From positions 1-41,231 of IMG/VR virus record IMGVR_UViG_3300045988_102542: a DNA stretch of 41,231 nt; one strand, 5' to 3'. Both the position numbers and the translations under genes were made by a program. Position 1 is the first letter of the stretch; every line of letters begins with the position of its first letter. This document shows positions 16,012 to 16,225 of this stretch, in pieces. Origin of the DNA: a virus. A model generated the notes under the pieces. The model did no database searches. It saw nothing but the letters and a program-made list of their open reading frames with translations, and was not told the origin of the DNA.

Positions 16012-16040
16012 TTGACAATACATAAGAAAAGATGTATAAT
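16012..16040 (+). promoter_or_regulatory. Consensus sigma-70 promoter
   Basis: TTGACA (16012-16017), 17-nt spacer, TATAAT (16035-16040). Confidence 0.75.
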
Positions 16041-16069
16041 AAATACAGAAAGGAGGTGAGAATGCGGAT

Positions 16070-16147
16070 ATGAATAATAAAATAAGCCTTGTAACAGCAA
16101 TAATCAATTTGATAACAGCGATTATATTGCTTTACAAGGCTCAATGA
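16070..16147 (+). CDS. 25-aa hydrophobic peptide (candidate type I toxin)
   Basis: MNNKISLVTAIINLITAIILLYKAQ. Its ATG overlaps the TGA of a 3-codon mini-ORF (ATG 16062, MRI*) that sits at optimal distance from SD AGGAGGTG (16051-16058). Confidence 0.5.
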   Translation: MNNKISLVTAIINLITAIILLYKAQ

Positions 16148-16190
16148 CCGAAGAGGGTGGAACACCCACCCTCCACCCTCTGGGTGGTTC
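16072..16190 (-). ncRNA. Candidate antisense sRNA (antitoxin-like) convergent on the small peptide ORF
   Basis: Starts downstream of the minus-strand promoter at 16197-16225. Passes the GC hairpins and the long imperfect hairpin (16086-16140), then a minus-strand T-rich tract (TTATTTTATTATT). Confidence 0.4.
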
Positions 16191-16196
16191 ATTCAT

Positions 16197-16225
16197 AATA
16201 TATCATATTCGCAAAAGCTATGCAA
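16197..16225 (-). promoter_or_regulatory. Minus-strand promoter with extended -10
   Basis: Minus strand reads TTGCAT (16225-16220), 17-nt spacer ending in TGA, then TATATT (16202-16197). Confidence 0.5.

Follow-up and report, generated by a model that had tools for sequence, protein, structure and literature searches.

A candidate type I toxin-antitoxin cassette with a predicted start-masking mRNA helix and antisense RNA in prophages of Negativicutes

The IMG/VR virus record IMGVR_UViG_3300045988_102542 (41,231 nt; here called the window, to which all coordinates refer) is a prophage of about 41 kb with an integrase gene at 207-1283 on the minus strand. Gene callers leave a gap of 340 nt empty between a DUF1492 gene and the gene of a 64-aa HTH_59 protein. 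In this gap sits a cassette that starts with a consensus promoter and a short hydrophobic open reading frame (ORF1) and runs on through a second one (ORF2) into the HTH_59 gene. Comparison with relatives suggests that the cassette is a prophage unit of type I toxin-antitoxin design, and we put the probability of this reading at roughly 0.6. That it constitutes a real, conserved, coding and RNA-structured unit is held with more confidence than the toxicity of ORF1. The cassette is made up of the following features:

16012-16040, plus strand: promoter P1, TTGACA-17-TATAAT, a 12/12 match to the consensus
16018-16037: palindrome ATACAT-N8-ATGTAT in the P1 spacer, overlapping the -10; putative HTH_59 operator
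16051-16059, plus strand: Shine-Dalgarno (SD) sequence AGGAGGTGA, read directly and conserved across loci
16062-16073, plus strand: mini-ORF ATG CGG ATA TGA (MRI, three codons), optimally spaced from the SD and with a stop that overlaps the ORF1 ATG (16070)
16063-16073, plus strand: 5' strand of a long-distance mRNA helix, covering the mini-ORF and the ORF1 start codon; 11 bp with 16203-16213, dG -15.2
16070-16147, plus strand: ORF1, a 25-aa single-pass hydrophobic peptide of family A and toxin candidate, MNNKISLVTAIINLITAIILLYKAQ
16079-16190, minus strand: predicted cis-antisense RNA of about 110 nt, with its inferred start 7 nt after the -10 and its end at a hairpin plus U-tract
16085-16142: long imperfect hairpin within ORF1, with a fold z-score of -6.1 (plus strand) and -5.2 (minus strand, where it is the stem of the predicted antisense terminator)
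16153-16187: GC-rich twin hairpin after the ORF1 stop; a GC hairpin stands here in every relative
16197-16207, minus strand: extended -10 of the predicted antisense promoter, TATGATATATT, with TATATT at 16202-16197 and TG at 16205-16204
16225-16220, minus strand: -35-like TTGCAT, with a 17-nt spacer to TATATT
16203-16213, plus strand: the other (3') strand of the long-distance helix, 6 nt before the ORF2 ATG and about 135 nt downstream of the ORF1 start
16220-16300, plus strand: ORF2, a 26-aa hydrophobic peptide without SD; its stop overlaps the HTH_59 ATG
16300-16494, plus strand: HTH_59, a small DNA-binding protein and the last cassette gene (Pfam PF20038, E 2.1e-31, residues 1-64)

Several of these elements had been described in a first-pass annotation of the same DNA. 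It placed a terminator at 15966-15990, followed by a consensus promoter and SD, a mini-ORF with a stop overlapping the ORF1 ATG, a long imperfect hairpin within ORF1, and on the minus strand an extended -10 (TTGCAT-17-TATATT, 16225-16197) with a terminator-like hairpin and TTATTTTATTATT. All of these motifs are present, the terminator hairpin at 15963-15990 and the SD core AGGAGGTG at 16051-16058. ORF2, the twin hairpin, the long-distance helix and the spacer palindrome go beyond that description. The type I design proposed in it holds in its core, by comparative evidence; the free-standing two-gene unit at 16012-16225 does not, as the cassette continues through ORF2 and HTH_59.

Relatives were gathered by searches with two proteins, HTH_59 and DUF1492, and with a DNA pattern derived from the ORF1 hairpin. 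The search for the peptide and hairpin arrangement in related prophages, as the first-pass annotation had advised, yielded more than 20 non-redundant prophage loci from gut and oral Negativicutes. These are found in viral contigs and in genomes of Megasphaera, Acidaminococcus, Selenomonas, Negativicoccus, Dialister and Allisonella and related metagenome-assembled genomes (MAGs). Among the lysogens are Megasphaera hexanoica MH, with the cassette near 1,271,300 of CP171361, and Acidaminococcus intestini DSM 21505. The loci display the same order: TTGACA-17-TATAAT, AGGAGGTGA, a hydrophobic ORF1, a GC-rich hairpin, ATTATAnCA (plus strand), a hydrophobic ORF2 and a DNA-binding gene. In this recurrent layout the start of the DNA-binding gene overlaps the ORF2 stop. 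The only genomic copy of the cassette that is 100% identical (L083, CALHGC010000068.1) lies on a 16-kb contig of a MAG labelled Treponema. As the remaining relatives are all Negativicutes or unclassified, this label is probably a binning error. One Megasphaera locus (L089) contains two complete cassettes, at 358-948 (family C) and 2711-3186 (family A), 1.8 kb apart (2.35 kb between their starts). Each has its own HTH_59 and operator type, and between the two lie an Xre-like gene and one further gene. The idea that one cassette of this locus was without ORF1 was rejected, since reading of the sequence revealed a complete family C module.

The ORF1 peptides fall into three families (A, B and C) without detectable mutual similarity. 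Family A shares the core INLVTAIINLITAIILLYK (window, L045, L046, L087, L089, L122, L125) and family B the core IEKALQ..ANVITIL.G...KG (L051, L084, L086, L095, L096 and, loosely, L048). In family C, the N-terminus is acidic and is followed by a hydrophobic helix and a tail rich in Lys/Arg (L016, L022, L041, L042, L085, L088, L106 and a second L089 cassette). All three consist of small (<60 aa) hydrophobic/transmembrane ORFs, as known from the type I toxin class. A hydrophobic stretch occurs in each family, and most members combine a neutral or acidic N-terminus with a basic C-terminus; the window peptide has a KD(15) of 2.7 and a basic C-terminus. Substitutions at codon positions 1/2/3 amount to 149/120/199 in family A, 113/82/142 in family B and 383/305/480 in family C, and within families a large share of the differing codons is synonymous. 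From this positional bias (3>1>2) and the synonymous changes it follows that ORF1 evolves as coding sequence. Among 49 window-type copies, the ORF1 zone contains one change only (16129 G>A). It is synonymous, leaves a G.U pair on the minus strand only and weakens the ORF1 hairpin on the plus strand. These copies also suggest that several overlapping constraints act on the ORF1 zone.

The start of ORF1 is involved in a predicted long-distance helix of the mRNA (16063-16073 with 16203-16213), with the ORF1 hairpin and the GC hairpins as the other arms of the three-way junction that it closes. The same closing helix was found in the minimum-energy fold of all family A/B loci (13/13). The pairing is kept despite sequence change, as in L046 (CGATATGGACG::CGTCCATATCG), L045 (AGATGTGA::TCACATCT) and L096 (AATAGTGACA::TGTCACTATT). 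In the test of this helix the SD was left out, since it pairs with the C-rich hairpin arms in any locus, and cross-locus pairs served as controls. The cognate duplexes then reached a mean of -17.5 kcal/mol, compared to -9.9 (standard deviation 2.9) for the cross-locus pairs. The cognate partner ranked first in 9/11 loci, and that of the window ranks 1/11 against the partners of the other loci. In 11/13 loci the helix is more stable on the plus than on the minus strand; it thus belongs to the mRNA, which must therefore reach past the GC hairpin. In several loci the GTGA of the SD also pairs with a TCAC beside the ORF2 start. In family C the long-distance helix is weak. It is this helix, and not the mini-ORF, that appears to be the conserved translational brake on ORF1.

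On the opposite strand, we infer that a convergent cis-antisense RNA gene faces ORF1. Its promoter would contain TRTGnTATAAT, the extended -10 consensus of Firmicutes. In the spacer between ORF1 and ORF2 this motif occurs with at most one mismatch on the minus strand of 16/21 loci and on the plus strand of none, a result that shuffled spacers reach in 0.45%. In nearly all loci, a start placed 7 nt after the -10 would lie at the foot of the GC hairpin. The predicted RNA of the window would be fully complementary to the 3' untranslated region and to ORF1, from roughly its fourth codon down to its stop. Read on the minus strand, the ORF1 hairpin is followed by TTATTTTATTATT, and a hairpin with U-tract was found at a consistent place in all 21 loci (21/21). 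The predicted length is 110-130 nt in families A and B, where the RNA would end within the first 17-38 nt of ORF1, and about 77-88 nt in family C, with the end in the 3' third of ORF1. The antisense U-tract of families A and B has as its template the A-rich codons for the N-terminus of ORF1 (NNKI, EKIN, IEKA). Compensatory changes in the hairpin affect 6 pairs in family A and 7 pairs in family C; the antisense candidates of family B align too poorly for a consensus fold past the closing stem. In the antisense RNA, the twin hairpin would make up the stem-loops at the 5' end; in the plus-strand transcript it would act as a weak terminator or 3' barrier. Whole-interval folding energies, compared strand against strand, gave no informative difference.

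A number of observations weigh against a type I system. In the window alone, the antisense -10 motif is no rarer than expected by chance (6 matches versus 7.5 expected), so that its weight rests on its conservation in the relatives only. The CAC of the conserved ATTATAnCAC also pairs with the GTGA of the SD on the plus strand, and part of this conservation could hence serve the mRNA fold and not a promoter. The terminator criterion that gave 21/21 loci is lenient, being passed by 39% of shuffles, and the strand preference of the ORF1 hairpin is modest (15/23 loci). A perfect consensus promoter is unusual for a toxin mRNA. Furthermore, the loci are related by descent and all counts overstate their independence. 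Finally, ORF1 never occurs without ORF2 and the DNA-binding gene, which would suit a role as regulatory leader equally.

In that case, ORF1 and the structures around it would regulate the ORF2-HTH_59 operon, the peptide would be non-toxic and the minus-strand motif would not be a working promoter. Translation of the short ORF or folding of the leader would set the amounts of ORF2 and HTH_59. The constant place of ORF1 upstream of these two genes is in line with this explanation, as is the helix 3' strand that abuts the ORF2 start. The SD of ORF2 is absent exactly in the families with the strong helix (13/13 A/B loci versus 0/9 family C loci, all of which carry GGAGG), so that its absence goes along with the helix. 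Moreover, one variant (L091) retains ORF2 and HTH_59 after the loss of ORF1. The explanation is nevertheless considered unlikely. The three unrelated families all keep a transmembrane helix, charged ends and coding-type substitutions, which would not be required of a leader peptide. Nor would the explanation account for the strand-specific conservation of TRTGnTATAAT and the hairpin with U-tract.

ORF2 itself shows eight variable sites among the 49 window-type copies, mostly at third positions of its frame, which favors ORF2 over a 116-aa N-terminal extension of the helix-turn-helix (HTH) ORF. Its type co-varies with the ORF1 family: a 26-aa peptide accompanies family A, a two-helix peptide of 42-48 aa family B and a peptide of 45-52 aa with a GG motif family C. 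HTH_59 is predicted to be translationally coupled to ORF2. Its structure model (pLDDT 88, built with database homologues) gave weak fold matches, with E values above 0.3 and none at or below 0.001. The top matches included MerR/Xis-type winged helices (Tn916 Xis, BldC, TraN, RacA), other winged-helix regulators and unrelated chains. Nothing useful was found in the literature on HTH_59 or PF20038. In the sequence collection, 952 indexed blocks contain exactly this HTH_59 protein. In two family A cassettes (L122 and L125) the third gene encodes a small basic protein starting with MTGNGWGGKRQGAGRPKGT instead of HTH_59, without Pfam match.

P1 retains the exact consensus in most relatives. In the window, TTGACA-17-TATAAT sites with at most one mismatch number 3, compared to 0.49 expected. 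A second perfect site lies in the early/regulatory region (6674-6702, minus strand), and there is no further perfect one in the window. The spacer palindrome is the sole perfect copy of ATACAT-N8-ATGTAT in the window. Among the loci it usually takes the form ATAC...GTAT, and perfect arms of at least 5 bp were found in 58% of loci versus 13% of shuffles. The palindrome type matches the HTH_59 variant despite a different ORF1 family (window and L016, L084 and L088, L048 and the first L089 cassette). HTH_59 is therefore probably an autorepressor of P1 that acts through the spacer palindrome. The P1 spacers of L122 and L125 are without the ATAC...GTAT palindrome.

In the window, the ORF1 ATG is situated 13 nt from the SD, behind the mini-ORF. 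A spacing of 12-13 nt occurs only here and in L084 and L086, and each of the three has a mini-ORF at canonical distance that overlaps the ORF1 start. The ATGA overlap of the window is also present in L084, while L086 has a variant and L045 a start-stop (ATGTGA). The first-pass annotation had seen in this arrangement a termination-reinitiation device that would throttle translation of the peptide. The overlap exists, but as a conserved brake the idea could not be upheld, as the arrangement is confined to the window, L084, L086 and the start-stop of L045. In L016 and L022, a promoter, SD and ATG identical to those of the window lead straight into a family C ORF1. For this reason, the mini-ORF of the window looks like a scar, a by-product of a cassette swap behind a common promoter, SD and ATG. 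Even as such a scar, it could throttle the initiation of ORF1.

The swap itself can be followed in the same two loci. Compared to window positions 15501-19507, L016 and L022 are 92-98% identical in DUF1492, HNH and the small and large terminase genes (about 95% in the flanks). Their ORF1 belongs to family C and their ORF2 is a different one, so that the interior of the cassette has been cleanly swapped. Swapping of the ORF1/ORF2 pair behind an unchanged promoter and HTH gene suggests diversifying selection, as in immunity or exclusion systems.

The surroundings of the cassette in the window are as follows:

15501-15959: DUF1492 late-regulator-like gene (Pfam DUF1492 match)
15963-15996, plus strand: intrinsic terminator closing the DUF1492 gene (12-bp hairpin 15963-15990, dG -13.6, z -6.4, then a T/A-rich tail)
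16605-16635, plus strand: terminator-like site between the cassette and the HNH gene (hairpin 16605-16626)
16677-17054: HNH gene
17214-17789: small terminase gene
17786-19507: large terminase gene

The upstream terminator is predicted to insulate the cassette from upstream transcription, and transcription from P1 may end at the site at 16605-16635. From HTH_59 to HNH (16495-16676), the DNA contains A-tract direct repeats GCCAAAAAAGCCAAAAAGACCAAAAAAGAC at about 16514-16543, along with a promoter-like TTTACG-17-TATAAT (16478-16506). This stretch could be a cos or terminase-binding region, or the true late promoter with its leader.

A place between DUF1492 and the HNH and terminase genes would suit a late-operon leader like lambda PR'/6S RNA/tR', in which a short, terminated RNA comes from a constitutive promoter and the upstream regulator antiterminates into the packaging genes. 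The DUF1492 protein indeed has a sub-threshold similarity to Q-like proteins (E 0.027 in Pfam, E 0.045 in PHROGs). In four other prophages (L095, L045, L084, L051), however, the cassette stands at the end of the prophage, behind an endolysin amidase. Its downstream neighbors in the Megasphaera hexanoica chromosome (L095) are thiL-like and tsaE genes of the host and not late genes. The genes upstream of the cassette differ among loci as well. Because of its place at prophage ends beside host genes, the cassette is regarded as an autonomous moron-like unit, and a late leader of the lambda PR' type, highly improbable in our estimation, was rejected. The location between a late regulator and packaging genes, which the first-pass annotation had made part of its description, is thus incidental.

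The frequent place after an endolysin gene would also fit a different explanation, namely that ORF1 and ORF2 are cognate effectors, small membrane peptides that the lysogen makes for purposes such as superinfection exclusion or lysis timing, or as an effector plus its immunity partner, without addiction or suicide. The RNA features would then merely tune the ORF1/ORF2 ratio. The strict co-variation of ORF1 family and ORF2 type agrees with such a pair, and so does the moron-like insulation by an own promoter and flanking terminators. This explanation is nonetheless judged quite unlikely. The multilayer repression is directed at ORF1 alone (helix, mini-ORF and antisense gene), the mark of a product that is normally kept off. 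The peptides are without lipobox or spanin-like length, and ORF1 has repeatedly been deleted or silenced while ORF2 was kept.

The loss variants are of several kinds. L017 lost the P1 -10, the SD and the ORF1 ATG when the DNA between GAAAAG repeats, about 150-190 nt before ORF2, was deleted. L090 has neither an ORF1 start codon nor an SD. Compared to L090, about 137 nt are gone in L091, including the ORF1 body, the GC hairpin and the antisense promoter, with ORF2 and HTH_59 kept. L007 and L083 carry different, independent point mutations in the P1 -10, at 16035 and 16038 (TATAAT to CATAAT and to TATGAT), in the same haplotype, which also carries 16129 G>A. These variants are compatible with selection against ORF1 expression, although the evidence is anecdotal.

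For a type I system, the following course of events can be proposed. P1 would transcribe an mRNA, beginning near 16047, with the ORF1 membrane peptide as first cistron, the translation of which would be restrained by both the mini-ORF and the start-codon helix. The extended -10 at 16207-16197 would give rise to the antisense RNA of about 110 nt, with GC-rich 5' stem-loops followed by the hairpin and U-tract terminator. This RNA would pair with the mRNA, thereby blocking initiation and/or causing cleavage of the duplex. Loss of the antisense RNA, or opening or trimming of the mRNA, would allow the peptide to be made and to damage the membrane. Such a release of the peptide may favor prophage retention or abort an infection. 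The same mRNA would run on into ORF2 and the coupled HTH_59, which would repress P1 via the spacer palindrome.

A more elaborate version, speculative and in our view rather improbable, is a hybrid RNA/protein module in which a single SD and a single mRNA switch between two outputs. RNA antitoxin, mRNA switch and protein autorepressor would together form a three-layer circuit. In one variant, the closed helix would loop out the toxin cistron, mask the ORF1 start and bring the only SD beside the SD-less ORF2 start. The unpaired distances across the base of the helix in this 'shared SD' geometry sum to 1-14 nt and are highly variable among loci. In the other variant, ORF1 translation would have to melt the helix to unmask ORF2. 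The synthesis of ORF1 would thereby be tied mechanically to that of ORF2 and the HTH_59 repressor, which would shut off P1, and the antisense RNA would set the prevailing state. If true, such a circuit would be undescribed for any type I system.

The coupling of the mini-ORF to the ORF1 start is reminiscent of mok, a short upstream frame coupled to the start of hok. The mRNAs of the hok and aapA toxins are held inert by long-distance 5'-3' pairing (PMC6733600). The cassette resembles hok/sok of plasmid R1 and aapA/IsoA of Helicobacter pylori in its small membrane peptide and in the covarying long-distance 5'-3' helix on the toxin mRNA (PMC6733600). It also shares with them an antisense RNA (in the cassette: predicted) that lies wholly inside the mRNA. 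In contrast to these systems, the cassette helix masks the start codon and not mainly the SD, and its 3' strand is internal to a longer operon mRNA, ahead of ORF2, instead of at the transcript end. There is no sequence or Rfam similarity to either system, and the hosts of the cassette are diderm Firmicutes.

The Ibs/Sib loci of Escherichia coli are similar to families A and B in combining a very short hydrophobic peptide with an antisense RNA (in the cassette: predicted) over essentially the whole ORF (PMC8594479). However, ibs loci do not contain downstream ORF2 and HTH genes, the peptides are unrelated, and the cassette has no Rfam Sib match. The layout of families A and B appears to combine an Ibs/Sib-like overlap of the full ORF with a long-distance helix like that of hok and aapA. 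The predicted layout of family C resembles the 3'-overlapping antisense layout of txpA/RatA, bsrG/SR4 and yonT/SR6 from Bacillus subtilis prophages (PMC8594479), whereas in families A and B the predicted antisense RNA covers nearly the whole ORF1. The yonT/yoyJ/SR6 locus offers a precedent from a prophage, a type I module whose polycistronic mRNA includes a second small ORF, also for a toxin (PMC5848175). Like the cassette, it is prophage-borne and has a polycistronic toxin mRNA, a second small ORF and an antisense gene (in the cassette: predicted) in between (PMC5848175). SR6 also overlaps the yoyJ 5' end, while the predicted RNA of the cassette starts upstream of ORF2 and points away from it. 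Furthermore, the Bacillus loci have no DNA-binding gene within the locus and no sequence similarity to the cassette.

Type II operons, such as the hicAB operon of the window, share other traits with the cassette: they are moron-like, have a consensus promoter with a palindrome in the spacer and -10, and encode a DNA-binding protein in the operon. They differ in that the candidate toxin of the cassette is a 25-aa membrane peptide with a putative RNA antagonist, and that its DNA-binding gene is not adjacent. The hicAB moron is located inside the tail-gene region (31108-31784, minus strand; HicA 31551-31733, HicB 31108-31512). The spacer of its promoter (TTGACG-17-TATAAT) is a palindrome with 11-bp arms, ATTATACGCAT-A-ATGCGTATAAT, the same promoter-with-operator design as in P1. 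As far as could be found, a type I front end in an operon that ends with a DNA-binding protein, with the operator in the toxin promoter, is undescribed.

The database searches agree with the first-pass annotation, which did not recognize the peptide as a named family. Neither ORF1 nor ORF2 of the window matched the named type I toxin families (Fst/Ldr, Hok, TxpA/BsrG, Ibs, ShoB and others) in Pfam or NCBIfam at E <= 1. ORF1 had no match in PHROGs or PADLOC, and the sole PHROGs match of ORF2 was at chance level (E 0.17, a PHROG of unknown function); for ORF2, too, PADLOC returned nothing significant. In an exact look-up in the protein collection, both window peptides were absent; relatives were named 'hypothetical protein' only. 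The window did not match the Rfam antitoxin RNA families (Sok, Sib, RatA, fstAT, IstR and others) at the gathering score, and Rfam at E <= 10 on 15900-16700 returned chance-level matches only (E >= 0.3). A blastn search of the region against GenBank phages gave no match. In the literature on type I systems none was found for Negativicutes; the T1TAdb paper, with its list of 24 families, makes no mention of Negativicutes in the text.

The cassette has been invisible to gene callers and to every family library tried. The prophage that carries it is very common in metagenome assemblies. The Negativicutes are Firmicutes with an outer membrane, and our search met with no previously described type I toxin-antitoxin system in this group. 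If the peptides are toxic, they would represent three new membrane-active peptide scaffolds, with a candidate prophage-stabilizing or abortive-infection function in abundant gut and oral bacteria. If the proposed design is true, the cassette would provide a natural case of one transcript controlled by an RNA antitoxin, by an mRNA fold that masks the start and by a repressor from its own operon.

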